From: Candidatus Nomurabacteria bacterium GW2011_GWE2_34_25
Lineage (GTDB): Bacteria; Patescibacteriota; Minisyncoccia; Phycocordibacterales; UBA9973
Direction: 5' to 3'
DNA length: 64,000 nt
NCBI GenBank assembly: GCA_000990325.1
Contig: LBPS01000005.1
Coordinates: 17,161 to 81,160, forward strand
Positions within the stretch are counted from its first letter, which is position 1, and the number at the start of each line of letters is the position of its first letter. Position numbers and translations under genes: made by a program. The notes under the pieces were generated by a model that was given only the letters and a program-made list of their open reading frames with translations, ran no database searches and was not told where the DNA came from. Positions 1,144 to 50,839 of this stretch are shown here, one piece after another.

Positions 1144-1359
1144 ATGAATCAAAGAGACGACAACAATACTGCCATAGGCATAGTTACAGAAGCCCTCCCA
1201 AATACACTCTTTCGAGTAGATATAGGTGGTGGTAAAATCATCATCAGCTATTTGTCTGGGAAGATGCGAATGCATAGGATTAAGGTTCTGTTGGGAGACA
1301 AAGTTGAAGTCCTTCTTGATCCGTATGGTGGTAAGGGAAGAATTATTAAGAGAGGGTAA
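1144..1359 (+). CDS. infA: translation initiation factor IF-1
   Basis: 71 aa; S1-like OB motif ...GKMR...RIKVLLGDKVEVLLDPYGGKGRII matches IF-1. Confidence 0.9.
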   Translation: MNQRDDNNTAIGIVTEALPNTLFRVDIGGGKIIISYLSGKMRMHRIKVLLGDKVEVLLDPYGGKGRIIKRG

Positions 1360-1466
1360 TGCCTCTTGCATTTTTATTTAAATAGTGTAATATAATTCGG
1401 TAATACGAAAGTTTCAATACAGGGTAGAACCCTTTATTTTTTCTTTCGCTTTATAGAGAGAAAAAT

Positions 1467-1577
1467 ATGAAAATTAAATCAGCTGTCAAAAAAATCTGTG
1501 CGAAATGTAAAATGGTAAAACGGGAAGGTCATCTCCGTGTTATTTGTACTAATCCTAAACATAAACAAAAACAATAA
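1467..1577 (+). CDS. rpmJ: 50S ribosomal protein L36
   Basis: Hand-translated 36-aa [39 protein letters not shown]. It has the zinc-ribbon CxxC...C...H signature of L36 and sits between infA and rpsM. It is below the 60-aa cutoff of the ORF track. Confidence 0.85.
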
Positions 1578-1583
1578 TTATAT

Positions 1584-1964
1584 ATGAGAATTCTTGGTAT
1601 AACAATCCCTAATAATAAACACCTAGACGTTGGGCTCACTGCTCTTTTTGGTATAGGTATTTCTAGAGCTCGTGCTATTTTAAAAGAAGTTGATATTGAT
1701 CCAAATATCAAGGCAGATACTCTAACAGTAGATCAAGAAAATGCTATACGTAAAGTTATAGAAACAATGTCTATAGAAGGGTCTCTAAAACGTGAAATTG
1801 CTTCCAATGTAAAAAGATTGAAAGATATCAAATCATACAGAGGAGTCAGACACATGAGAAGATTACCAGTCAACGGTCAGCGTACTAAAACAAACTCCAG
1901 AACTATTAGAGGTAATGTACGTAAAACAATGGCATCTGGTCGCCGAAAAGAAAGTAAGACATAG
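1584..1964 (+). CDS. rpsM: 30S ribosomal protein S13
   Basis: ILGITIPNNKHLDVGLTALFGIG...YRGVRHMRRLPVNGQRTKTN is a canonical S13. Confidence 0.95.
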   Translation: MRILGITIPNNKHLDVGLTALFGIGISRARAILKEVDIDPNIKADTLTVDQENAIRKVIETMSIEGSLKREIASNVKRLKDIKSYRGVRHMRRLPVNGQRTKTNSRTIRGNVRKTMASGRRKESKT

Positions 1965-2009
1965 GTCAAGTGACCAAGTAGAAAGTTATAAACTTTAAGA
2001 ATTAAAATT

Positions 2010-2462
2010 ATGGGAAAAGTAAAAATTATAAATAAAGAAGAGGAAGCTAAAACAGTAGTAGAAGAAGCTACTTTAGACACAGCGCCCAAAGCCGGGATTA
2101 AAGTACCTAAAAAGAAGGTTGTTGCAGGTACTTTACACGTAGAAGCCACTTTTAATAATACTAAGGTTGTACTTTCTGACAAAGAAGGCAATACATTATT
2201 CTGGACTTCAGCCGGATCTCTTGGTTTCAAAGGTGCAAAGAAGGGAACTCCTTTTGCGGCTTCAAAAGCTGGTTCAGTAGTAGGTGAAAAAGCAAAGGCT
2301 CTTGGTATAAAAGAAGTTGATGTAAAAGTAAAAGGGGTTGGTTCGGGACGAGAGCCTACGATTCGTGCATTTATGGCTTATGATATTGAAATTTCAGGAG
2401 TAAGAGATATGACGCCAGTTCCTCACAATGGTCCAAAACCTAAGAAACCACGCAGAGTATAA
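2010..2462 (+). CDS. rpsK: 30S ribosomal protein S11
   Basis: HVEATFNNTKVVLSD...GREPTIRA matches S11, with an N-terminal extension. Confidence 0.93.
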   Translation: MGKVKIINKEEEAKTVVEEATLDTAPKAGIKVPKKKVVAGTLHVEATFNNTKVVLSDKEGNTLFWTSAGSLGFKGAKKGTPFAASKAGSVVGEKAKALGIKEVDVKVKGVGSGREPTIRAFMAYDIEISGVRDMTPVPHNGPKPKKPRRV

Positions 2463-2517
2463 TATAATTACGAATTAAGAATCAGAATTAAGAATTTAGA
2501 AAGACAAAAAACAACAA

Positions 2518-3126
2518 ATGAAAACAGTAAAAAAATACAAAATAGGTAGAAGATTGGGTGCTGGAGTATTTGAAAAATGCCAGACAGCTAAATTCGTTGC
2601 TTCTGAAGCTCGTCATGCGAAGAATTCAAAAAATAAAAGACCCAAGATGCTTTCTGGATATGCCCTTCAGTTCGTAGAAAAACAAAAAGTTCGTTTTATG
2701 TATGGTATCAGTGAAAAGCAATTTTCTAACTATGTAAAAGAAGCTGTGTCAACTAAAGGAACTCTTGCAACTGAAACCCTTTTTGAATTACTTGAAACCA
2801 GACTTGATAATGTTGTTTACAGATTAGGACTTGCTCATACTCGTCGCCTTTCTCGTCAAATGACTTCCCACGGACACATCACGGTAAATGGAAAGAAAAC
2901 AACAGTACCTTCTCTTCGTGTTAAGGTTGGAGATGTTATCGTAGTACGTGCTGGCAGTCAAAAGAGTGTTATGTTTGCAGATATGGTAAAGAAAATGAAA
3001 GAATACACTTGTCCAAACTGGCTTACTATGAATGGAGAAACATTGACCGGAAAAGTTGTTGGCAAGCCTAAAAATATAGAAGGTTTCCTTGATCTCAACA
3101 CAGTCCTTGAATTTTATAGTCGTTAA
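2518..3126 (+). CDS. rpsD: 30S ribosomal protein S4
   Basis: LETRLDNVVYRLGLAHTRRLSRQ...VNGKK...PSLRVKVGD matches the S4 domain. Confidence 0.95.
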   Translation: MKTVKKYKIGRRLGAGVFEKCQTAKFVASEARHAKNSKNKRPKMLSGYALQFVEKQKVRFMYGISEKQFSNYVKEAVSTKGTLATETLFELLETRLDNVVYRLGLAHTRRLSRQMTSHGHITVNGKKTTVPSLRVKVGDVIVVRAGSQKSVMFADMVKKMKEYTCPNWLTMNGETLTGKVVGKPKNIEGFLDLNTVLEFYSR

Positions 3127-3241
3127 TATTAGTAACGTATGGTTAATTTTAATAAATAATCTATTGCGAGTTTACTCGTAAATAAAATATGTCAGATTTA
3201 AATATCATATTACCATCCAAATTATCCATCGTTTCCATACC

Positions 3242-4114
3242 TTGGGCAATTCTCTACGCCGTATAATCCTTTCGTCATTATCAGGTTCTGCTATTACTAC
3301 TCTCAAGATAGAGGGAGCAAATCATGAGTTCTCTGTCTTAGATGGAGTTAAGGAAGATGTTATTACAATCCTGCTTCATTTAAAGCAAGTTCGTTTTCGT
3401 CTTCTTACTGACGAACCTCAAACAGTCAAACTTGTAGTCAAAGGGCCAAAGCTAGTAACAGCTTCCGACATAGAAGTCGGTGGTCAAGTAGAGGTTTTAA
3501 ATAAAGATTTATATATTGCAGAAGTTACATCAAAAGCCAATCTTTCAATAGAAATGACCATAGAGAAAGGTCTTGGTTTCGTATCAAAAGAAGTTCATCA
3601 AAAAGAAAAGAATGATGTTGGCACTATATCTGTAGACGCTATTTTCACACCTATCAGACGTGTTGCATATGAAGTTGAAAACATGCGCGTTGGAGATAAG
3701 ACTAACCACAATCGCCTACGTATGACTATAGAGACAGACGGCACACTTACCCCTCGTGAAGCGCTAGAGAAGGCTATTGTTATAATGGTAGAGCAGTTAC
3801 AAGCTATTATAGGATTTACTGTTACCAATCGATCATTACCTAAAGAAGAAAATGAAGAAGTTTCAAAAATAAAAAAGGAATCAGATGAAGAAAAAGGAGA
3901 AGGCAATGAATTTACAGATATATTGAAAACTCGTATTGATACCCTAACTCTTTCTACTAGAACACTCAATGCATTGACAGACGCCAACATCCGCACCATC
4001 GGAGGTATAGCAAGAAAAAAGAAAGAAGACTTGCTTGAGATAGATGGTATCGGAGATAAAGGAATTCAAGAGATAAAGAAAGTTCTTGGAGAATATGGCA
4101 TAACACTAAAGTAA
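3242..4114 (+). CDS. rpoA: DNA-directed RNA polymerase alpha subunit (5' boundary uncertain)
   Basis: HTLGNSLRRIILSS and an alpha-CTD LTLSTRTLNAL...GDKGIQEIKKVLGEYGI. The track start is a TTG inside the conserved TLGN motif, so the N-terminus is unresolved (see findings). Confidence 0.9.
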   Translation: MGNSLRRIILSSLSGSAITTLKIEGANHEFSVLDGVKEDVITILLHLKQVRFRLLTDEPQTVKLVVKGPKLVTASDIEVGGQVEVLNKDLYIAEVTSKANLSIEMTIEKGLGFVSKEVHQKEKNDVGTISVDAIFTPIRRVAYEVENMRVGDKTNHNRLRMTIETDGTLTPREALEKAIVIMVEQLQAIIGFTVTNRSLPKEENEEVSKIKKESDEEKGEGNEFTDILKTRIDTLTLSTRTLNALTDANIRTIGGIARKKKEDLLEIDGIGDKGIQEIKKVLGEYGITLK

Positions 4115-4177
4115 TTAAGAATTAGGAATTAATAATTAAGAATTAACATATGAGACACGGAAATAATGTAAGAAAAT

Positions 4178-4450
4178 TTGGGAGAAATAAGAATCAGAAC
4201 AAGTGAAGCTAAGGCCAAGGAGCTTCGTCCTGCAATAGAGAAAATGATTACCAAAGCAAATCTTGGAACTCTAGCATCACGAAGACTTGTAATTTCACGT
4301 TTATATGGTTTGACAGCAGAAGCAAGTAAATTAATCGATACCATTGCTCCAAAGTACAAAGGTCGTACTGGAGGCTATACACGCATCACAAAGCTTGGAG
4401 CTCGTGCTAGTGGAGATGCAAGCAAGATGGCAGTAATTGAATTTATATAA
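4178..4450 (+). CDS. rplQ: 50S ribosomal protein L17 (5' boundary uncertain)
   Basis: ...AKAKELRP...[26 protein letters not shown] is the L17 C-terminal core. It uses a TTG start, and an L17-like N-terminus ([18 protein letters not shown]) lies in another frame at 4150-4206. Confidence 0.85.
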
Positions 4451-4805
4451 TATTATGACAACAGTACATACAATCGATGCAGAGGGGAAAGTATTGGGAC
4501 GCGTAGCAAGTGCTGCTGCGAAGGCTCTTATGGGTAAAACATCAGCAGAGTATACAGCAAACAAAGTTGCAGATGTTCGTGTATATATTAAGAATGTGTC
4601 CAAGACTAAGGTTACAGAAAAGAGATTGAAAGAGACTCTCCATGAGACTTATTCAGGTCAGCCAGGAGGATTCAAACAAAAGACGAACGAAAAGATAATC
4701 GAGAAGAAAGGTTGGACAAAATTATACGAACTCGCAGTATATGGAATGCTTCCATCTAACAAACTTCGACCTCTAATGATGAAACGTTTAACAATAACTG
4801 AATAA
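4437..4805 (+). CDS. rplM: 50S ribosomal protein L13
   Basis: [13 protein letters not shown]...AEYT...GGFKQ...AVYGMLP matches L13. Confidence 0.9.
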
Positions 4806-4810
4806 TAAAT

Positions 4811-5236
4811 ATGGCTGAGAAAAAAACAACAACTAAAGAGAAAGGCAAAGAATACTTCAGAGCTATCGGTCGCAGAAAGACTGCTGTAGCTGTGGTACGT
4901 TTGTATAAGGCAACAAAGACTACTTATAAAGTAAATGGTAAAGATTTTACAGAATATTTCGGAACTCCCGAATTGAAGAAGATAGTGACAGGTGCATTTG
5001 AAACAGCAACACCAGCGGAGAAGTTTGAAGTGGTAGTTACTACAAAGGGTGGAGGTTCACATGCTCAAGCTGAAGCTGTCCGTCACGGTATCTCTCGTGC
5101 GTTGGTTCTATATGATGCAGAACTACGTTCTAGTCTTAAGAAAGCTAAAATGCTTAAGCGTGATCCTCGTACAGTTGAACGTAAAAAATTCGGACTCAAG
5201 AAAGCAAGAAAGAGCCCACAATGGAGTAAACGTTAA
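4811..5236 (+). CDS. rpsI: 30S ribosomal protein S9
   Basis: GGGSHAQAEAVRHGISRAL...KKARKSPQWSKR is the canonical S9 C-terminus. Confidence 0.95.
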   Translation: MAEKKTTTKEKGKEYFRAIGRRKTAVAVVRLYKATKTTYKVNGKDFTEYFGTPELKKIVTGAFETATPAEKFEVVVTTKGGGSHAQAEAVRHGISRALVLYDAELRSSLKKAKMLKRDPRTVERKKFGLKKARKSPQWSKR

Positions 5237-5264
5237 TAAAAAGACCTCGAAAGAGGTCTTTTTA
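5237..5264 (+). terminator. rho-independent terminator after rpsI
   Basis: aagacctc-gaaa-gaggtctt hairpin followed by a T run. Confidence 0.8.
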
Positions 5265-5277
5265 AGTTTACTCCATT

Positions 5278-5480
5278 GTGGGGAGAAAGGGGTCGGGGAA
5301 ACTCCGGTTTCCTTACAGGAACTGTCCGCTCATTGGATTTTATGTGTGAGTACATACAAAAAACCTCAATGAGCCTTGCGGAGTTCCAAGTATTCACTCC
5401 TCACCCCGTGGAGGAAGGCAGGGTACTCCCGTTGGAAAACCGTGGGTTTCCAAAGAGCCGGAGGCGACCACATTGGTCAA
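5278..5480 (+). ncRNA. candidate structured ncRNA (GC-rich island)
   Basis: A ~200-nt GC-rich segment in an AT-rich genome with multiple nested complementary helices. Examples are GGAACTgtCCGC/GCGGAGTTCC, GCTCATTG/CAATGAGC, and 5' GGAAACTCCGG against 3' CCGGAGG. It is flanked by a duplicated rpsI 3' end, and its own terminator lies at 5494-5524. Confidence 0.4.
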
Positions 5481-5493
5481 AACGTTAATATAC

Positions 5494-5524
5494 AAAAAAC
5501 TTCCTGCATGGGAAGTTTTTTTTG
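5494..5524 (+). terminator. rho-independent terminator
   Basis: aacttcc-tgcatg-ggaagtt followed by T8. Confidence 0.8.
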
Positions 5525-5556
5525 TATAAATATATTGAAATGATATAATATTTTAT

Positions 5557-6420
5557 ATGCAAAATCTATCATGGTTTCCATTTTCAATTATTGCAGTTAT
5601 CTGTTTTGGTTTTTCTATGGCTTTCTATAAATTTCCAGCTGCTAAAAACCAGAGTAGGTACTCAGTATCTTTTTGGCAATTATTTATATCTTTCCTATTA
5701 TCTTTAGTTGTTTTCTATAAATATATTCCTGCTACAAATTTAACCACTATAATATATGGCTCTTTATGGGGTTTCTCTTTTTTGTGTTTATCTGTGCTTC
5801 AAATGAAAGCTCTAAAGGAAATAGATACAAATATGTTATACCCAGTTACAACATCCCTAAGTCTAGTTATTTCTGTAATGTTTGGAGTGTTATTTTTTAG
5901 GGATGCTATATCTTGGCTTCAGATTATTGGAATAATTCTAGTAATAATGGTTGTTTATTTATTTTCATATAAAGGTAAAAGTCTACAATATTCAAATAAG
6001 ATTTTAATTATAGGGTTAGGAGTAATTTCATTGTCTACATTCGGTAAAATAATTCAAAAATTTGCTACAGGAGTAAGTTCTGTAAATATAAATACACTTC
6101 AGGTTTACCAGTATCTTTCAGCTGCAATATTCTCATTACTGTTGTACTTATATATAAATAGAAATAAAGCAAACAAAAAACCACATATTGGCTCTATTAT
6201 TTCTGGAGCAATGATTGCTATACCAAGTTTTTTGGGTGGCTTTATGTGGTTAATTGCTTTAAAACGCGGACCGTTTTCTCTGGTGTCTTCTGTTCATTCT
6301 CTTTATATTTTAGTGGTGGCGGTGATTGCGTATTTTATGTTTAAGGAAAAACTAACGTTTAAAAAAATAATATTAATTTTAATTGCCATTTTAGCAATGA
6401 TTTTAATAAAAGTTGGATAA
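5557..6420 (+). CDS. DMT/EamA-like integral membrane transporter
   Basis: 287 aa with about 10 hydrophobic helices in two repeated halves. This is typical of drug/metabolite transporters; family assignment is by architecture only. Confidence 0.45.
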   Translation: MQNLSWFPFSIIAVICFGFSMAFYKFPAAKNQSRYSVSFWQLFISFLLSLVVFYKYIPATNLTTIIYGSLWGFSFLCLSVLQMKALKEIDTNMLYPVTTSLSLVISVMFGVLFFRDAISWLQIIGIILVIMVVYLFSYKGKSLQYSNKILIIGLGVISLSTFGKIIQKFATGVSSVNINTLQVYQYLSAAIFSLLLYLYINRNKANKKPHIGSIISGAMIAIPSFLGGFMWLIALKRGPFSLVSSVHSLYILVVAVIAYFMFKEKLTFKKIILILIAILAMILIKVG

Positions 6421-6440
6421 TAAACTCATCTCTAGTTGTT

Positions 6441-7153
6441 TCCAGCCTTGCTGGTAAAATTATGCATGATATAATACAAAAATGTCAATACGTAAGGTAA
6501 ATTTTGTTCACGGGGAATATTATCACATATATAATCGTGGAAATAGTAAACAAAAAATATTTCAAGATAAGGAAGATTATGAATATTTTCTTAAATTGCT
6601 TTTTATTGCAAATGGTGAAGAAAAATTTAAATTTCATTTTTTAGAAGGTAATGTTTATGAAGCTAAAAGAGGGAATCAACTTGTTGGTATTGGTGCTTAT
6701 GTTTTAATGCCAAATCATTTCCATATACTTATAACCGAAACCCAAGAAGGTGGTATAAGTAAATTTTTACATAAAGTTTCAAGTGGTTATTCTCACTATT
6801 ATAATAAAAAATACGAAAGAACAGGATCTTTATTTGAAGGAAAGTTCAAATCAGAATATATAGATAATAATCGTTATTTTAAATATCTGTTCTCATATAT
6901 TCATCTAAATCCTATTAAGTTGATTCAGAAAAATTGGAAAGAAGAGGGTATCAAGGAGAAAGAAAATATTTTGTATTTTCTTAATGATTATAAATATTCT
7001 AGTTATAAAGATTATTTAAATATATCTAGACAAGAAAATTTAATTCTTAATAGAAAAGATTTTCCCAACTATTTTTCATCAAAAAATACATTTTTAAAAG
7101 AAATATTTGACTGGATTAAGATAGAATTGTAAAATTTTACCAGCAAGGCTGGA
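6441..7153 (+). mobile_element. RAYT-type (IS200-like Y1 transposase) unit bounded by 21-bp perfect inverted REP-like hairpin repeats
   Basis: 6441-6461 TCCAGCCTTGCTGGTAAAATT is the exact reverse complement of 7133-7153. Each arm contains the hairpin CCAGC-CTT-GCTGG. Confidence 0.7.
6482..7132 (+). CDS. IS200/REP-associated tyrosine (Y1, HuH) transposase-like protein
   Basis: YHIYNRGN...KIF, HuH motif LMPNHFHILI, ...RTGSLFEGKFKS... and a catalytic-Tyr region YIHLNPIK. This matches the Y1_Tnp (IS200-like) / RAYT fold. Confidence 0.75.
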   Translation: MSIRKVNFVHGEYYHIYNRGNSKQKIFQDKEDYEYFLKLLFIANGEEKFKFHFLEGNVYEAKRGNQLVGIGAYVLMPNHFHILITETQEGGISKFLHKVSSGYSHYYNKKYERTGSLFEGKFKSEYIDNNRYFKYLFSYIHLNPIKLIQKNWKEEGIKEKENILYFLNDYKYSSYKDYLNISRQENLILNRKDFPNYFSSKNTFLKEIFDWIKIEL

Positions 7154-7214
7154 ATAATATGATTTTTAAAAACAAAGACTTGAAAAAGTCTCTATTTTTG
7201 TATAAGATAAGAAT

Positions 7215-7868
7215 ATGAAAGATGAAGAAATAATAGATAATGAGAAATCTACAGAGGAAAAAGAAAGTATTATAAAGAGAGAAGATCGTTTTAATCCCAT
7301 TGAACTGTCTTCTGGGGAACTTCACGTTGAACCAGACATGATATATGTTGATAGTGATGAAGATGGAGATGCATTGCCATCAAAAGATGTTGTAAAAAAA
7401 CTACGTGAAGAATTAAAAACTTTAAGAAAGGAGAAAGAAGAATATTTGACAGGCTGGCAGAGAGCGAAAGCAGACTATGTGAATTTACAGAAAGAGCTTG
7501 ATTTAGCCCGAATAAATATATCTATTTTAACTAAAGAAAAAATGGTAGAGAAGTTGCTTCCAAGTCTCGATAGTTTCGAGATGGCGTTTTCAAATAAAGA
7601 ACATTGGGAGAAAATAGACAAAGATTGGCAAAATGGCATAACTTCTATATATCAGCAACTTACCTCTGGGTTATCTGAAGCAGGAATTGAAAAAATAGAT
7701 CAGATTGGAATTCCATTTGATCCTAACGTTCATCAGTCTATAAGCATCGTAGCTACAGAAGACCAGACGAAAGATCACACGGTAGAAAAAGTTCTACAAG
7801 TAGGATATAAAATAGGAGAAAGAGTTATTCGCCCAGCCAAAGTCACTATTTTTGAATACAAGAAATAA
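7215..7868 (+). CDS. grpE: nucleotide exchange factor GrpE
   Basis: Coiled-coil N-terminus, then LTGWQRAKADYVN...VIRPAKVTIF, the GrpE signature. It lies upstream of dnaK. Confidence 0.9.
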   Translation: MKDEEIIDNEKSTEEKESIIKREDRFNPIELSSGELHVEPDMIYVDSDEDGDALPSKDVVKKLREELKTLRKEKEEYLTGWQRAKADYVNLQKELDLARINISILTKEKMVEKLLPSLDSFEMAFSNKEHWEKIDKDWQNGITSIYQQLTSGLSEAGIEKIDQIGIPFDPNVHQSISIVATEDQTKDHTVEKVLQVGYKIGERVIRPAKVTIFEYKK

Positions 7869-8367
7869 ATTCTTTTTCGGTTTCTTCATCTATTTTGTCT
7901 GTCACTATAATTATAAGTTCAGTGGAGAGATTTAAATCCTTTTTTATATTTGTAAAGAGATGTTCGAAAGGGTACATAGATATCCAGACAGAATTTTTCA
8001 AGCAGGCGAAGCCTGCTTTCTTAAGCAAGTAACGAAGTGCTTCACGTTCGCTCTTTCTATCCTCAGGCATATCAAGTAGAATTATTCTCCAAAATCCGTC
8101 CCAGGTATTGCTAATAAGAGCATTCTCACATTCAAGCTTCAAACTATTTGCTCGTTTTTTACCTTCTTTTGTGAGCTTTGTATATTGATTTTGCCCTGAA
8201 TATATACTTTCTATCAATCCTGCATCCTTTAGACCCTTTATAGAACGATTTAAGGCATATTGGCTATCCTTATCAAGGACTATCTTTTTTTCTAGTTCTC
8301 CAGCAGATATTGCTGGTTTTTCTGATAGGATTTTTATAATTTTCTTTGAAAAATCACGCTTTTTCAT
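7846..8367 (-). CDS. PaaX-like winged-helix transcriptional regulator
   Basis: C-terminal TWDGFWRIILLDMPEDRKSEREALRYLLKKAGFACLKNSVWISMYP matches the PaaX C-terminal domain pattern (WDGxW...PE...R..LR..L...GF..L.NSVW..P). It is divergent from dnaK. Confidence 0.55.
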   Translation of the reverse strand: MKKRDFSKKIIKILSEKPAISAGELEKKIVLDKDSQYALNRSIKGLKDAGLIESIYSGQNQYTKLTKEGKKRANSLKLECENALISNTWDGFWRIILLDMPEDRKSEREALRYLLKKAGFACLKNSVWISMYPFEHLFTNIKKDLNLSTELIIIVTDKIDEETEKEFISCIQK

Positions 8368-8405
8368 GGTATTGACAGTGTATCATATATGAATATAATA
8401 TTCAA

Positions 8406-8433
8406 CAAGTATTTAGCGGTCGCTAAATACTTG
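8406..8433. promoter_or_regulatory. 28-bp palindromic operator (13-nt arms) between the divergent regulator and dnaK
   Basis: CAAGTATTTAGCG-gt-CGCTAAATACTTG. It overlaps the -35 (TTGTCA 8431-8436) of a promoter with -10 TATAAT at 8453-8458 and a 16-nt spacer. Confidence 0.6.
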
Positions 8434-8485
8434 TCAAAAATTAAAGTTAGTATATAATGAGATAGTGTTTAAAAATAATTAACTT

Positions 8486-8555
8486 CGCAGAAATATTAAA
8501 ATTTTCACAGCTTTACCCTAAAGGGCTCCGACGCTGATAAAAATTTTAACATTTC
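8486..8555 (+). repeat. conserved upstream motif, copy 1 (upstream of dnaK)
   Basis: GCTTTACCC-loop-GGG...ACG...TTTnAACATTTnTnCTCCGTTA, enclosed by an inverted repeat gcagaaatattaaaattttcacag / ctgataaaaattttaacatttctgc. The second copy is at 38161-38233. Confidence 0.6.
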
Positions 8556-8594
8556 TGCTCCGTTAATAATATTATTAATTAATTATAAAAACAT

Positions 8595-10490
8595 ATGAGT
8601 AAAATTATAGGTATCGATTTGGGTACAACAAATAGTGCAGTGGCTATCATTGAAGGTGGTCAACCAAAAATTATTGAGAATATCGAGGGTGCTCGTACAA
8701 CTCCATCAGTGGTAGCAATTACCAAGAATGGTGATCGTATGGTGGGTCTTCTAGCGAAGCGTCAAGCAGTGACGAATCCTGAAAATACTGTTTACGGTAT
8801 TAAGAGATTCATTGGTCACATGTACGATGATCCAGAAATTCAGAAAGACGAGAAGACTATTCCTTACAAAATTCAGAAAGGAAGTACTGGTGGAGTAGAA
8901 ACAAAGATTGGAGATAGTTGGCTACGCCCAGAAGAGATTTCCGCTATGATTTTAAGTAAGATTAAGGCAGATGTAGAAGCAAAGCTCGGTGAGAAGATTA
9001 CTGAAGCAGTTATTACAGTTCCTGCATATTTCAACGATGCTCAGAGAAAGGCTACAAAAGACGCAGGGATCATCGCAGGACTTGATGTAAAACGTATTAT
9101 CAATGAACCTACTGCAGCTGCTCTTGCTTATGGATTTAATACAAAGAAAAATGAGAAGATTGTTGTCTACGACTTTGGAGGAGGTACGTTTGACGTGTCA
9201 GTTCTTGAAGTCGGCGATGATGTTATTGAAGTGAAGTCTACCGATGGCGATTCACACATGGGTGGTGAAGACATTGACCAGAAAATTGTGAAGTGGATTG
9301 CCGATGAATACAAGAAAGAATCAGGTATAGATGTTACTAAAGATATGCTCGCATTGCAACGTCTAAAGGAGGCTGCTGAGAAGACAAAGCATGAACTTTC
9401 AACAACAACAGATTCAGAAATAAATATTCCATTTATTACTTCAGATGCATCAGGACCAAAACATTTACTCTTGAAAATGTCTCGTGCGGTTCTAGAGTCT
9501 CTTGCAGAAGAGTATGTAACTCGTTCGATAGAAATTACAAAAAGAGCAGTTGAAGCTTCTCCATTTAAAATGGATGAAATTCATGAGATCATATTGGTTG
9601 GAGGTCAGACAAGAATGCCAAAGATTGTGGAAGAAGTAAAGAAATTGTTTGGTAAAGAACCAAATCGTTCAATCAATCCAGATGAAGTAGTAGCTCTCGG
9701 TGCTGCAGTACAAGCTGGAGTCCTACAGGGCGACGTACGCGACGTTCTTCTTCTAGACGTTATTCCACTATCTCTTGGAATAGAAACTCTTGGGAGGGTC
9801 GCCACAAAGCTCGTAGAACGCAACACAACCATACCTTCATCTAAGTCACAAATATTCTCAACTGCCGCAGACAATCAGACAAGCGTAGAAATACACATTA
9901 CTCAAGGTGAGCGTCCAATGGCAAGTGACAACAAGTCTCTCGGTAGATTTATCTTAGATGGTATTCCACCTTCACCACGAGGTATTCCTCAGGTGGAAGT
10001 TACCTTCGATGTAGATGCCAATGGAATCTTAAATGTGAAAGCCATGGACAAAGCTTCAGGCAAAGTTCAGTCAATTCGTATTGAAGCAAGTTCAGGACTT
10101 ACAGAAGCAGATATTAAAAAGATGCGAGATGAAGCAGAAGCTCATGCTGAAGAAGACGCTAAAAAGAAAGAATTAGCTGATCATAAGAATACAGCTGAAA
10201 TGATGATTTTCACAGCTGAGAAATCAGTCAAAGAATATGGCGACAAAGTTACTCCAGAAATAAAGACAGAAATAGAAAGTAAAATAACTGCGTTAAAAAC
10301 TGCAAAAGAAGGCAACGACATGGAAGCTATAAAGAAAGCAACAGAAGAACTTTCAAATGAAATGTCGAAAATTGGCGATAAGGCTCCAGAAGAGCAAGGC
10401 CCAGAAATAAGAGATGCGGAAACTACTGAAAGTAGTGCAGGTGCTGACAAAGGAAGTGCAGAAGTAAATGAAAATCCAGAACAGAAATAG
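8595..10490 (+). CDS. dnaK: molecular chaperone DnaK (Hsp70)
   Basis: [18 protein letters not shown], and 631 aa in length. Confidence 0.97.
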
Positions 10491-10514
10491 GAAATTGAAT
10501 AAATAAAAGACTTA

Positions 10515-10623
10515 CTGAAAACAGCTTCTCCTCTCGGGTCCGCATAATTTCTTGCTAGAAATTTGCTCATTGCTCGGCTCGTCAGCCTGCGCCGGCCCCT
10601 CGCTGAAAACTATTTTCATGCAG
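10515..10623 (+). ncRNA. conserved structured intergenic element, copy 1 (after dnaK)
   Basis: Core GGGTCCGCATAATTTCTTGCTAGAAATTTGCTCATTGCTC... ending CGCCGGCCCCT. The 40-nt core is identical to the copy at 49744-49783. Flanking terminal stems are complementary but differ in sequence between the two copies (covariation). Confidence 0.5.
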
Positions 10624-10651
10624 TCTTTGTATTTATGCTAATATATAAACT

Positions 10652-11740
10652 ATGCCCAAAGATTATTACAAAACATTAGGAGTAGATAAGAATGCTTCGA
10701 AGGAAGAGATTAAGAAAGCTTTCCATAAGCTGGCTCATGCTCATCATCCAGACAAGAATAAAGGTGATGATAAAAAGTTTAAGGAAATAAATGAAGCTTA
10801 TCAGGTTCTTTCGGATGACAAGAAGCGAGCTTCTTTCGATCAATTTGGTAATGCCGATGGACCTCAGGGCTTCGGTGGCGGAGGATTTGGGGGACAAGGA
10901 GGATTTGGAGGGTTTGATTTCACAGGGCAGAATGGTGGAGTGGAATTTGATATGGGTAACCTAGGAGATATCTTCGGAGACTTTTTCGGTGGGGGTATGG
11001 GACGTAGTCAAAAAGTTAAGAAAGGTAGAGACGTACAGACGGAAATAACCCTAACTTTCGAAGAAGCTATTTTTGGTGTAGATAAAAATATAAAAATAAA
11101 TAAGCAGTCAGTCTGTAGTATTTGTGGTGGTACAGGGGCGAAAGTTGGCACCAAAATGAATACTTGTAACACTTGCGATGGGCAAGGGCAAGTACGAGAG
11201 GTTCGTCGTTCTATACTTGGCAACTTTGCGACGACGAAAACTTGCGAGACTTGTTTTGGAAAAGGAAAAGTTCCTTCTGAAAAGTGTAGTAACTGTAAGG
11301 GTGCTGGTGTAGTAAGGAAAGATGAAGAAATAAGTCTAAATATTCCGTCAGGTATAAATAATGCTGAGACTCTTCGTGTACGTGGGAGGGGCGAAGCTAT
11401 ACAAGGAGGAGAGGCTGGGGATTTGTACGTGAAGCTCGATGTGAAGTCGCACCCTGTTTACACTCGTGAAGGGCAAAACTTAATGATGGATTTGAATATT
11501 AAACTCACAGATGCACTCCTCGGTATGACTTACAACTTGAAAACTCTTGATGGGAAGAACATGGAAGTGAAAATTCCTGAAGGTATAAACAATGGTGAGA
11601 TGCTTCGTGTAAAAGGTAAAGGTGTACCAACTACTCACGGCAAAGGCGATACCATCATCCGTATTCACGTAAACATGCCATCCAAACTTTCCCGCAAAGC
11701 AAAAGAGTCTATCGAAAAGCTAAAAGAAGAGGGAATCTAA
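10652..11740 (+). CDS. dnaJ: chaperone DnaJ (Hsp40)
   Basis: J-domain HPDKN, a G/F-rich linker, four CxxCxGxG zinc-finger repeats, and a C-terminal domain. Confidence 0.95.
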
Positions 11741-48016: not shown

Positions 48017-48081
48017 CATTATTGAATGAACATAAATCACTCTCAACTTTGGTTGAGGGTGATTTATGCTATAATAGAGGA

Positions 48082-49458
48082 ATGAATCGATACATTTTAT
48101 ACCTTTTCTCTTTTTTCTTTATATTTACATCAATTTTTGGAAATTTCATTTATCAAATACCAAAAGTTCATGCTGGCCAGGAGCTTGAAAATGCCCAAGC
48201 CGATAGAGCCAGGCTAGAAAGTGAGCTATCAAACCTGGAAAAGGAAATAGCCGCAAAACAAAAGGAGCTTTCTACACAGAAGGGCCAATCCACCTCTCTT
48301 TCTCGTGATATAGCGATCCTAACAACTCAAATTAAAAAATCCAAATTAGACATTCAAGCCAAGAATCTAATAATCAAAAAACTGGGAGGTGAAATAATTG
48401 AGAAAAGTCAGAAAATTAATACTTTAAATGACAGATTAGACAGCATTAAAGAATCTTTGGCTCAATTAATCCGTAAAAACAGAGAAATAGATGATAAATC
48501 AATACTCGCGTTAATACTTTCAAAAAATAATATCTCCGATGCTTATGGAGACATTGATGCCTTTTCTTCTATAAAAAGAAGCATTGGTAAATCTGTAGAT
48601 GAAATCAGAGGAGTAAAGTCTCTCACTGAAGAAGAAAAAAATCTCCTCGAGCAAAAGAAAAACAAAGAAGTAGATACCAAAGTACAACTAGAAACAGCCA
48701 AAAGAGAAGTTGAGATGAATGAAAAAGATAAACAACAATTATTATCAATTAGTAAAGACAAAGAAAAAGCTTATCAAAAACTTTTAGATGATAAAGCAAG
48801 AAGACGCGCGGAAATACTTTCAATGTTATTTAATCTTCGTGACGTTTCTGCTATTCCTTTTGAAAAAGCTTTGGAATATGCAAAATTAGCTGAAGAAAAA
48901 CTAGGAATTAGGCCTGCATTTCTACTTGCAATACTTACCCAAGAAAGTAATTTGGGTACTGACCAAGGATCTTGTTATGTTACCAACATCGAAACTGGAT
49001 CCGGTATAAGTTCTAAAAGCGGTAAGGCATTTGCAAACGTTATGAAGCCAACCAGAGATGTAAAACCTTTCTTTGATATTACTACGTCTGTCGGAAGAGA
49101 TCCATATAAAACTCTAGTCTCTTGCCCTATAGGAGGTTCTGGGTATGGAGGAGCTATGGGTCCAGCACAATTTATCCCTTCAACATGGCAATTGCTTAAA
49201 TCTCGAATCGCAAATATTCTTGGAATAAAAACCCCTGATCCATGGTATGCAAAGGATGCTTTCATGGCCTCAGCTATTTATCTTACAGATCTAGGCGCCA
49301 AAGGAAGTAGCTATACAAGCGAAAGAAATGCTGCTTGTAGATATTATTCAGGTCGTAAATGTGACAATAAAAAGCCAAATAATAGCTTTTATGGGGACAG
49401 TGTTATGAAGAAAGCAACTAATATTCAAACGAAATACATTGACCCATTGCAAAACTAA
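48082..49458 (+). CDS. secreted coiled-coil protein with C-terminal lytic transglycosylase-like domain
   Basis: Signal peptide MNRYILYLFSFFFIF...; a long coiled coil; C-terminal ILTQESNLG...GAMGPAQFIPSTW, which resembles the SLT/MltB catalytic region. Confidence 0.55.
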   Translation: MNRYILYLFSFFFIFTSIFGNFIYQIPKVHAGQELENAQADRARLESELSNLEKEIAAKQKELSTQKGQSTSLSRDIAILTTQIKKSKLDIQAKNLIIKKLGGEIIEKSQKINTLNDRLDSIKESLAQLIRKNREIDDKSILALILSKNNISDAYGDIDAFSSIKRSIGKSVDEIRGVKSLTEEEKNLLEQKKNKEVDTKVQLETAKREVEMNEKDKQQLLSISKDKEKAYQKLLDDKARRRAEILSMLFNLRDVSAIPFEKALEYAKLAEEKLGIRPAFLLAILTQESNLGTDQGSCYVTNIETGSGISSKSGKAFANVMKPTRDVKPFFDITTSVGRDPYKTLVSCPIGGSGYGGAMGPAQFIPSTWQLLKSRIANILGIKTPDPWYAKDAFMASAIYLTDLGAKGSSYTSERNAACRYYSGRKCDNKKPNNSFYGDSVMKKATNIQTKYIDPLQN

Positions 49459-49484
49459 TAAAAGCGTGATAATATAACAAAATT

Positions 49485-49712
49485 ATGAAGAAAAACATTC
49501 ACCCAAAATATAACAATAAATCAGTAGTCACATGTGCATGTGGAGCTACTTTCCCCGTAGGATCTACCATGGATAGCATTACAGTTGAAATATGCAGTCA
49601 GTGCCACCCTTTCTATACCGGTAATGAAAAGGTTCTCGACACAGCAGGACGTGTAGACCGCTTCAAGAAGCGTGCAGCCGCAGGTGCAAAGGCAACAAAA
49701 ACAAAAAAGTAA
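49485..49712 (+). CDS. rpmE: 50S ribosomal protein L31
   Basis: MKKNIHPKY...CxC...[10 protein letters not shown] matches zinc-ribbon L31. Confidence 0.9.
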
Positions 49713-49721
49713 CTTAAAAAA

Positions 49722-49827
49722 ATCATAAATAGCTCTTCTCAGAGGGTCCGCATAATTTCTTGCTAGAAATTTGCTCATTGCTCAGTCCGTCGACCTCCGC
49801 CGGCCCCTCTGATAAGACTATTTATGA
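49722..49827 (+). ncRNA. conserved structured intergenic element, copy 2 (after rpmE)
   Basis: The same 40-nt core as 10536-10575, plus a conserved CGCCGGCCCCT. Terminal inverted repeats atcataaatag...cagaggg / ccctctg...ctatttatgat are perfect here. Confidence 0.5.
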
Positions 49828-49864
49828 TTTTTTTAATACTCTTTTATTTGATATAATAAAAAAT

Positions 49865-50839
49865 ATGAATTTAGATTTAGAACAACTCAAGAAAGATCAC
49901 AAGACTAGCTATTTCGCTCTAGAATACGAGCGCCTTTTAATTGAAGAAGAAAAAGTAAATGATATGGTAGCTCTTGATGAAAGTCTACGTGACCTTGCAG
50001 AAGAGGAAATCCAAAATATTAAATTTCAAAAGGAAGCAATTGAAAGACAATTAGAAGAAATAATGAAAAGGGATATAGAGGAAGAAGAGTTCCCCAATGA
50101 AATTATCCTTGAAGTTCGCGCTGGAGCTGGAGGGGATGAAGCTTCACTTTTCGCATGGGAGCTTGCTCATATGTACGAAAGATTCTCTGAAGAGAAAAAT
50201 TGGAATTGGAAAATTCTCAATGAATCCTTAAGTAGTGCTGGTGGGTACAAAGAAGCATCGATAGAAGTAAAAGGTAAAGATGTATACAAGCTTCTACGCT
50301 ACGAGACCGGAGTTCATAGAGTACAACGTATTCCTGCCACAGAGAAAAATGGAAGAATACATACTTCGACAGCGTCAGTTGCTGTTCTTCCTTTGAAAAA
50401 GAAAACAACAATAGTCATAAATCCTGCAGATATAGAGATAGAGTACTCACGCTCAGGTGGAGCAGGAGGGCAGAATGTAAACAAAGTAGAGACAGCTGTT
50501 CGTCTTATACATAAGCCGACAGGAGAAGATGTTCGTTGTACTACGGAGAGAACCCAACTTGGCAACAGAGAAAAGGCTATGATGATGCTTACCTCTAAGC
50601 TTCAAATGATTAAAGATGAGGAAGATGCTAAAAAATATTCAGGGGACAGAAAAGCTCAAATAGGTACAAATGATAGAAGTGAGAAGATCCGCACCTACAA
50701 CTTCCCGCAAGATAGAGTCACCGACCACCGCATCAAGCAATCTTGGTCCAATATTCCTGGAATAATGGAGGGGAATATAAGTAGAATCATAGAAGCCCTT
50801 TCAAGTGGACAAGTAGGGGATGCAGAGGAAGAGGAGTAA
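49865..50839 (+). CDS. prfA: peptide chain release factor 1
   Basis: PAT tripeptide motif (PATE) and GGQ ([19 protein letters not shown]). The start is set at the first ATG downstream of the repeat element, so the N-terminal domain is short. Confidence 0.88.

Follow-up and report, generated by a model that had tools for sequence, protein, structure and literature searches.

The structured element lying between rpmE and prfA in our window (the whole 64,000-nt stretch of Candidatus Nomurabacteria bacterium GW2011_GWE2_34_25 analysed here) is one copy of a multicopy family of intergenic hairpins found in Parcubacteria/Paceibacteria (CPR) genomes. This family is previously unlisted, and it is absent from the RNA family database that was searched (Rfam 15). 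Its members are about 90–200 nt long (median 120) and carry a conserved three-way junction of about 65 nt at their tip. Our preferred reading, held with modest confidence, is that they are mobile hairpin repeats similar to MITEs or REPINs, the tip of which would serve as a recognition module for a trans-acting partner. Two copies are present in the window, as follows:

49716..49834, minus strand (putative folding strand): element copy 2, whole hairpin, delimited by sequence, fold and covariance-model match
49744..49808, minus strand: conserved apical core (three-way junction) of copy 2, delimited by identity with copy 1 and family covariation
10508..10630, minus strand: element copy 1, in the dnaK-dnaJ spacer, delimited by alignment, fold and covariance-model match

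Copy 2 is a hairpin of about 119 nt, in which A7, a long stem, the apical three-way junction, the returning stem and T7 follow one another. The arms atcataaatag-ctcttct-cagaggg (49722–49746) and ccctctg-ataagac-ctatttatgat (49805–49829) pair with each other around a centre of 58 nt (49747–49804), and the pairing continues outward between A7 (49716–49722) and T7 (49828–49834). Read on the plus strand, the core contains the helix P2, GCATAATTTCT-TGCT-AGAAATTTGC (49750–49774), and the helix P3, GTC-CGTC-GAC plus an internal loop (about 49781–49799). Folding energies amount to -43.9 kcal/mol (plus strand, z = -8.4 against shuffled sequences) and -49.1 kcal/mol (minus strand, z = -7.3), and the covariance model of the family matches positions 49728–49821 of the minus strand (86.2 bits, E = 4.5e-27). 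Copy 1, which is matched at 10520–10613(-) with 78.7 bits and folds at -29.5 kcal/mol (plus) and -44.5 kcal/mol (minus), has the same core and a different outer stem. Overall, the pairwise alignment of the two copies shows 82% column identity, with compensatory substitutions in P3 (GGCT/AGCC in copy 1 vs. GTC/GAC in copy 2). Exactly two occurrences of the 40-nt core GGGTCCGCATAATTTCTTGCTAGAAATTTGCTCATTGCTC are present in the window (49744–49783 and 10536–10575), vs. none in 100 shuffles. The sequence is as described in the original prediction, which had reported near-perfect inverted repeats at 49722–49827 and 10515–10623, and its proposal of a non-coding structured element repeated after dnaK is borne out. 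No third copy was found in the 64-kb window by nhmmer, BLAST or the covariance model with filters off; a 15-bit match of the latter at 5472–5549 is a plain terminator and not a family member. As a side observation, two assemblies of the same species differ by an A/G polymorphism inside the element (window position 49784 vs. position 3300 of locus L001), the G variant allowing one more base pair in P3, as in copy 1.

The element overlaps the 5' end of the ORF initially listed for prfA, and three features have to be distinguished there:

49485..49712, plus strand: rpmE (ribosomal protein L31, 75 aa; Pfam PF01197, E = 8.5e-30), with its stop codon at 49710–49712
49760..49864, plus strand: spurious, non-coding 5' extension of the prfA ORF, with a TTG start inside the element; no ortholog aligns through it
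49865..50839, plus strand: prfA (RF1), true coding region, 324 aa, from ortholog lengths, N-termini, PCRF and RF-1 domains and PDB RF1 matches

Both ORFs mentioned in the original prediction exist, i.e., the TTG-initiated ORF of 359 aa that runs from 49760 into prfA and the 324-aa RF1 opened by the ATG at 49865. The latter is where orthologs place the start. Indeed, the best 120 RF1 homologs (81–94% identity), whose named hosts are Nomurabacteria or Paceibacterota, are 321–340 aa long, nearly all of them having 323–325 residues, while on public contigs of the same species (the identical L31 protein is found on 21 contigs) RF1 is given 324 aa by other gene callers. In an alignment of eight homologs, the N-termini, M(N/Q)..., fall at the Met encoded by 49865, and the few longer database entries carry short extensions unrelated to 49760–49864. 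Compared to structures in the PDB, this RF1 has about 30 N-terminal residues fewer than the 354-residue chain of 4v4r but only about 8 fewer than the 342-residue chain of 1rq0. To regard 49760–49864 as a genuine N-terminal extension of RF1, one can invoke the open frame running from the TTG into prfA. However, the 35 residues that it encodes have no counterpart in any of the aligned homologs (whereas orthologs aligning through this region would have spoken for a coding stretch), the Pfam PCRF domain starts only downstream of Met 49865, and the same sequence is found, without coding, after dnaK and, in one orientation or the other, at dozens of further sites, so that we give this option virtually no credence. 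The element had been suspected of either encoding part of RF1 or forcing a short RF1, and it does neither. Relatives with an element-free rpmE-prfA spacer of 69–71 bp, containing a plain terminator hairpin only, also have an RF1 of 323–324 aa, which implies that the short RF1 is a trait of the lineage rather than an effect of the element. Upstream of rpmE, in a position kept in all relatives examined, a gene at 48022–49458 encodes a protein of 478 aa, the long N-terminal part of which is coiled-coil and the C-terminal part an SLT_2 lytic transglycosylase domain.

The search for the family began with a pattern specific to one subtype (type A), which returned eight copies, all in Candidatus Nomurabacteria GW2011_GWD2_36_14 (hereafter GWD2), a species-representative genome. 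Five more copies, belonging to other subtypes, were found in the same eight 8-kb GWD2 loci, for 13 copies in all. The eight type-A copies have in common a unit of about 98 nt, AAATAGCTCTTCTCAGAGGGTCCGC...GCCGGCCCCTCTGATAAGACTATTT, beyond which the flanks differ but continue the inverted repeat; two of the GWD2 copies are identical over 98 nt and have different flanks, with matched A5/T5 vs. A4/T4 runs. A looser core pattern, built on the parts common with a diverged copy and run on metagenomes, hit at least 119 loci, of which about 100 are genuine, the others being mostly P-loop coding sequence. The covariance model (R1), built from an alignment of 92 distinct members, yielded 118 matches in 748 kb of loci, including some missed by the pattern. 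Both the abundance in metagenomes and the taxonomic breadth of the family are at-least values. The GC content of the element loci ranges from 30% to 58%, the most GC-rich one being a Kaiserbacteria contig according to its GyrB. Rfam 15 at gathering threshold returned only two tRNAs over the whole window, and the matches obtained at permissive E-values with copy 2 and a typical member were nothing but noise from miRNA hairpins, far under the threshold. Likewise, no family match was obtained in the viral contigs of IMG/VR, the phages of INPHARED/GenBank or the plasmids of PLSDB, and we found no description of the element in the literature on CPR/Parcubacteria repeats, hairpins, ncRNAs and REPIN/RAYT systems.

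The density of the element is uneven: 21 kb of either L015 or L017 contain no member, vs. four in 12 kb of L092. Several loci hold two to four copies, some of them adjacent or in tandem. Such tandem or adjacent copies (e.g., L029 4243–4434, L006 4603–4839, L010 573–793 and L092) belong to different subtypes and are often in opposite orientation, which suggests insertion hotspots. Chimeric members were also observed (L021 2728–2821, L127 11305–11393 and L139 7711–7807), in which the 5' part (in plus orientation) is swapped for an extra small hairpin, GGTGATTCTGCTGAATCAC, and which obtain lower covariance-model scores.

The fold common to all these copies can be broken down into the following parts:

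P1: the long basal stem
P2: a singly bulged helix of about 10 bp, closed by the loop AGCA
P3: four base pairs capped by the loop GACG and stacked over an internal loop of 3x2 nt, C[GNA]G/C[GA]G
Below the 3x2 loop: a helix of 2–3 bp between the nucleotides on either side of CGNAG and CGAG

On the folding strand, the consensus reads ...CGNAG-NNN-GACG-NNN-CGAG-N2-4-GAGCAAA-N5-AGCA-N5-UUAUGYG... or, in a finer version, ...CGnAG nnY GaCG Rnn cGAG nnn gAGcaAa nnuYY AgcA RRannu UAugYg... The GACG and AGCA loops and the junction nucleotides are invariant in the core, while conservation is highest at the centre of the hairpin and lowest at its ends, the long basal stem being conserved within subfamilies only and otherwise specific to each copy. 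The three-way-junction fold is real. P2 and P3 are paired in 98–99.5% of the cases, with two to five standard pair types per pair. Across the alignment fitted to R1, 91.5% of the cells are paired (66.1% in shuffles) and 711 cells show double-sided changes (206 ± 15 in shuffles), which are present in 23 of the 25 pairs, although the sequences counted are related and their alignment, being fitted to the model, leans towards it. Sliding the partners by one to three columns lowers the covariation score from 0.595 to 0.06–0.12. Moreover, whole subfamilies have an additional A on one side of P2, facing an additional U on the other. RNAalifold, when applied to a MAFFT alignment, recovered only P2 and P3. 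This is because the registers of P1 differ between copies, so that the pairs of P1 had to be entered manually in the model.

Which strand folds could be determined from G·U pairs, and first of all outside the conserved core, in the outer stems, which are independent of it. There, 127 transitions would produce G·U pairs on the reverse complement of the GGGTCCGC orientation, vs. 41 of the opposite kind; tallied per copy, the outcome is 56 vs. 15, with 26 ties. Within the core, again read on this strand, 75 of 114 copies have G-C and 37 have G·U at the pair 78/130, the 37 G·U copies becoming A·C mismatches if read on the other one. Single-sequence minimum free energies are also lower on the minus-type strand in 89 of 92 copies, these 92 values being non-independent since the core is common to all. 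Consequently, and this corrects the original description, the strand selected to fold is not that of rpmE/prfA but the minus strand of the window, which is antisense to rpmE/prfA and dnaK/dnaJ. As G·T is the mildest mismatch in DNA too, this result fixes the strand and is compatible with both RNA and single-stranded DNA.

The original prediction had gone on to suggest a translational or transcriptional regulatory structure for prfA and, by analogy, for dnaJ, and this is where the genomic context of the family has to be considered. A cis-acting leader or attenuator would be in line with both window copies being directly upstream of a gene on the same strand, as well as with a copy at 3250–3345 of the Kaiserbacteria contig L024, just upstream of a prfA-like ORF. 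In this contig (58% GC), the member is in sense orientation with respect to the RF1-like ORF (3386–4396), an adjacency that is probably a coincidence given the density of copies. Yet, when the family was looked for in front of other genes, it turned up beside unrelated genes in either orientation, without any specificity for prfA or dnaJ: between co-directional neighbours, 23 members are sense and 28 antisense, while 12 members are in convergent and seven in divergent contexts. Furthermore, the folding strand in the window is antisense to both prfA and dnaJ, close relatives without the element have the same RF1, and Rfam returned no leader or riboswitch match. Finally, a putative promoter element lies downstream of the hairpin:

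49849..49857, plus strand: putative extended -10 box TGaTATAAT for prfA, read from the sequence

This box, which ends 7 nt before the ATG of prfA, lies between the latter and the element, so that the element is probably outside the prfA leader and prfA may well have its own promoter downstream of it. A two-hexamer promoter scan of 49400–49950 did not call the box. In L015 and L017, a TATAAT is similarly found downstream of the T-tract of the terminator in the rpmE-prfA spacer and, elsewhere in the window, 5486–5560 displays the same layout as prfA, with a plain terminator hairpin followed by TGATATAAT and an ATG. The hairpin in question, ACAAAAAACTTCC-tgcat-GGGAAGTTTTTTTTGT, looks like a plain bidirectional terminator, and the ATG comes 8 nt after TGATATAAT, which is a near-leaderless arrangement as at prfA. 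Overall, the leader hypothesis appears very improbable, and cis-regulatory and coding readings alike are effectively excluded.

A role in transcription termination is another matter, at least for copy 2. The only hairpin between the stop codon of rpmE and the putative prfA promoter is copy 2 itself, and its plus-strand fold is followed by T7 (49828–49834), even if it was not called by a short-loop terminator scan of 49400–49950, its loop being longer than 8 nt. Given that A7 and T7 bracket the stem and that no other hairpin follows rpmE, copy 2 most likely serves, incidentally, as the rpmE terminator, and it is plausible that it insulates prfA by doing so. One might go further and argue that the element is nothing else than a long intrinsic bidirectional terminator of rpmE, devoid of any function at the family level. 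At the corresponding position, the relatives indeed have a plain terminator (A-tract, hairpin, T-tract), the arms of which are similar (ATAAAAGGCTC...GAGCTTTTTAT in L015 vs. ATAAATAGCTC...GACTATTTAT in the window), and the other spacers of the window also feature plain hairpin terminators. Nevertheless, termination does not need a covarying three-way junction of 65 nt in more than 100 copies, members also occur in divergent spacers, and a T-run follows the stem in only 8 of 90 members, A-runs before the stem being equally many, so that there is no family-wide bias at the feet of the hairpins. This makes the terminator role specific to the copy, and an explanation by termination alone unlikely.

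We also considered that the core might merely have been inserted into the loops of existing terminators. This idea was set aside because the G·U bias of the outer stems follows the orientation of the core, and because one site of the window is empty of the whole hairpin, outer stem included:

7846..7868, no strand assigned: empty site where two convergent genes overlap by 23 bp, from BLAST synteny, sequences and ORFs

The GWD2 locus L012 is syntenic with 1236–10840 of the window at 75–87% identity (BLAST). In the window, the convergent ORFs 7215..7868(+) and 7846..8367(-) overlap at the empty site, while a type-A hairpin is found between the same two convergent genes in L012 (3017–3151). Since both gene ends are intact in the window and in L012, about 23 bp have been duplicated around the insertion in the latter, which is long and resembles a target-site duplication. 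Other differences between relatives are in the same vein: the dnaK-dnaJ spacer of GWD2 houses another subtype, in which both P1 and P2 have undergone compensatory changes, and the rpmE-prfA spacers of L015 and L017 are element-free, with a terminator only. In two further relatives, this spacer has contents of its own, i.e., another GC-rich hairpin in L014 (~9905–9990) and, in L019 (~9905–9975), after a separate plain terminator, a sequence resembling a type-A copy that has lost its P2 half by a deletion between two GGTCCG repeats.

These observations fit a repeat of the MITE/REPIN kind, on the grounds that the family is multicopy, intergenic, indifferent to orientation and polymorphic between species, and that it shows subfamily-specific ends, decayed or chimeric copies and occasional flanking repeats. 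Under such a scenario, the family would be a non-autonomous mobile element that would spread among intergenic sites, often terminator-like ones, with copies being gained, lost and replaced between related species. Selection on the strand-specific fold would maintain the element, and the conserved tip would presumably be recognised by a trans-acting protein.

Several results fit this scenario less well. First, the clustering of about 750 ORFs from the vicinity of the elements revealed neither a transposase nor a parent insertion sequence. The clusters do not contain any RAYT (Y1/HUH) candidate either, and no gene family is linked to the element beyond local synteny, its neighbours being diverse. 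A Xer-like recombinase, Xth, a NYN-domain protein and PNPase were examined as possible partners and rejected, their recurrence reflecting Nomurabacteria synteny (xth-[element]-xer-like and NYN-[element]-pnp); in the xth/xer spacer, members are in either orientation. Second, signs of target-site duplication are weak and uneven: 16 copies are flanked by direct repeats of at least 7 nt, vs. about seven expected, and many copies show none. In one subfamily (L029, L052, L061, L111 and L118), GAGCGA abuts both feet of the hairpin, the stem of which ends with GGTATTG...CAATACC; this motif could be either a sequence-specific target duplicated upon insertion or a terminal motif of the element. Third, near-perfect palindromes extend past the conserved unit, which simple cut-and-paste does not explain. 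Fourth, the folding strand is not significantly biased with respect to local GC skew (25 vs. 37, p = 0.16), thus lending no support to a mechanism based on the replication fork or single-stranded DNA. Last, the middle of the hairpin is its most conserved part and covaries across lineages of contrasted GC content, which is more typical of a functional RNA.

This final point is also apparent when the family is compared to known systems. In classical MITEs and REPINs, the ends are conserved and the middle drifts. REP/REPIN elements (RAYT-mobilised; Enterobacteria, Pseudomonas) are extragenic multicopy hairpins of about 100 nt that often follow 3' ends, in one orientation or the other. They are stable within a lineage while varying in position, undergo compensatory changes that preserve the hairpin and can act as terminators or mRNA stabilisers, all of which recalls our family. 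A REPIN, however, has two inverted REPs of about 25 nt, with conserved ends and a variable spacer, while here the apex is conserved and the base variable; an architecture of two inverted REPs of about 20–40 nt with conserved ends and a variable spacer was not observed in the family. Members also lack a GTAG-type foot motif and a RAYT among neighbouring ORFs, and the family spans lineages of 30–58% GC with an unchanged core. The likeness to MITEs (e.g., Correia/NEMIS, RUP, ERIC and Nezha of IS630/Tc1 type) resides in short, non-coding, multicopy units with long inverted repeats, in presence/absence polymorphism between relatives and in occasional flanking direct repeats. Long inverted arms exist in every copy of our family, 13 copies exist in GWD2, empty and filled sites are observed, and the ends are common to subfamilies (TAGCTCTTCTC... 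in Nomurabacteria, GCCCGAAA... in another set), the conserved unit being bounded by TA in the Nomurabacteria subtypes. Unlike in MITEs, it is the internal core that is conserved family-wide and covarying, rather than the terminal repeats, no parent insertion sequence is known, the flanks continue the palindrome past the conserved unit and the signs of target duplication are weak. As for integron attC sites, they too are strand-specific folded hairpins after genes, conserving the structure of the stem more than its sequence. Nevertheless, attC sites conserve basal R/L boxes around a variable centre, i.e., the opposite of our family, and they form cassette arrays beside an integron integrase, whereas our elements are dispersed among housekeeping genes. 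The bases of their stems differ from each other, without R''/L'' and L'/R' boxes or arrays next to intI.

Orphan structured RNA motifs and self-cleaving ribozymes (hammerhead, twister) are similar to the family in their compact multi-helix junctions, invariant nucleotides and strong covariation, as well as in having many intergenic copies per genome in either orientation. They differ from it in that no Rfam 15 match was obtained and in that the very long perfect basal stem of the family is atypical. By eye, the junction strands fit neither the hammerhead nor a K-turn. The main competitor of a mobile hairpin is a set of small structured RNAs, each expressed independently and acting in trans or as a catalyst, for which the minus strand would be transcribed, the basal duplex would be a stem for processing (e.g., by RNase III) and the functional RNA would reside in the tip, the copies being paralogous genes kept by selection instead of transposition. 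We regard this as a serious, though less favoured, explanation. It would account well for the deeply conserved core, with its invariant loops and junction and its helices covarying across lineages of 30–58% GC, for the clear one-strand G·U asymmetry, for an orientation that is independent of the neighbours, as expected for self-standing genes, and for the 3x2 loop C[GNA]G/C[GA]G, which, as read from the alignment, could form tandem G·A pairs. On the other hand, the hairpins lack a conserved promoter or terminator signal (T-runs are rare and equal on both sides), elements are wedged within a few nucleotides of the adjoining genes, copy number and positions vary among close relatives (none in L015 and L017, four in L092), and there are tandem or adjacent, decayed and chimeric copies. 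The tip might, tentatively, represent a new class of functional RNA specific to CPR/Paceibacteria, protein-binding or catalytic, released from a long hairpin precursor and possibly self-spreading. The mobile hairpin repeat with a recognition module at its tip remains the reading that we prefer.

At the level of annotation, our analysis places the RF1 start at ATG 49865 and draws attention to an element that repeatedly gives rise to spurious ORFs and to false 5' extensions of genes in CPR genomes. More broadly, dispersed repeats are unexpected in the tiny streamlined genomes of CPR bacteria, yet this family reaches tens of copies per genome. If the tip were indeed a functional RNA, it would be a new class, absent from Rfam, with tens of copies per sub-megabase genome. 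CPR hosts are largely uncultured. Be it a mobile hairpin of DNA or a structured RNA of a new kind, the element offers a concrete, testable way into their genome dynamics or RNA biology, for which the model R1 and over 100 aligned members are already available.
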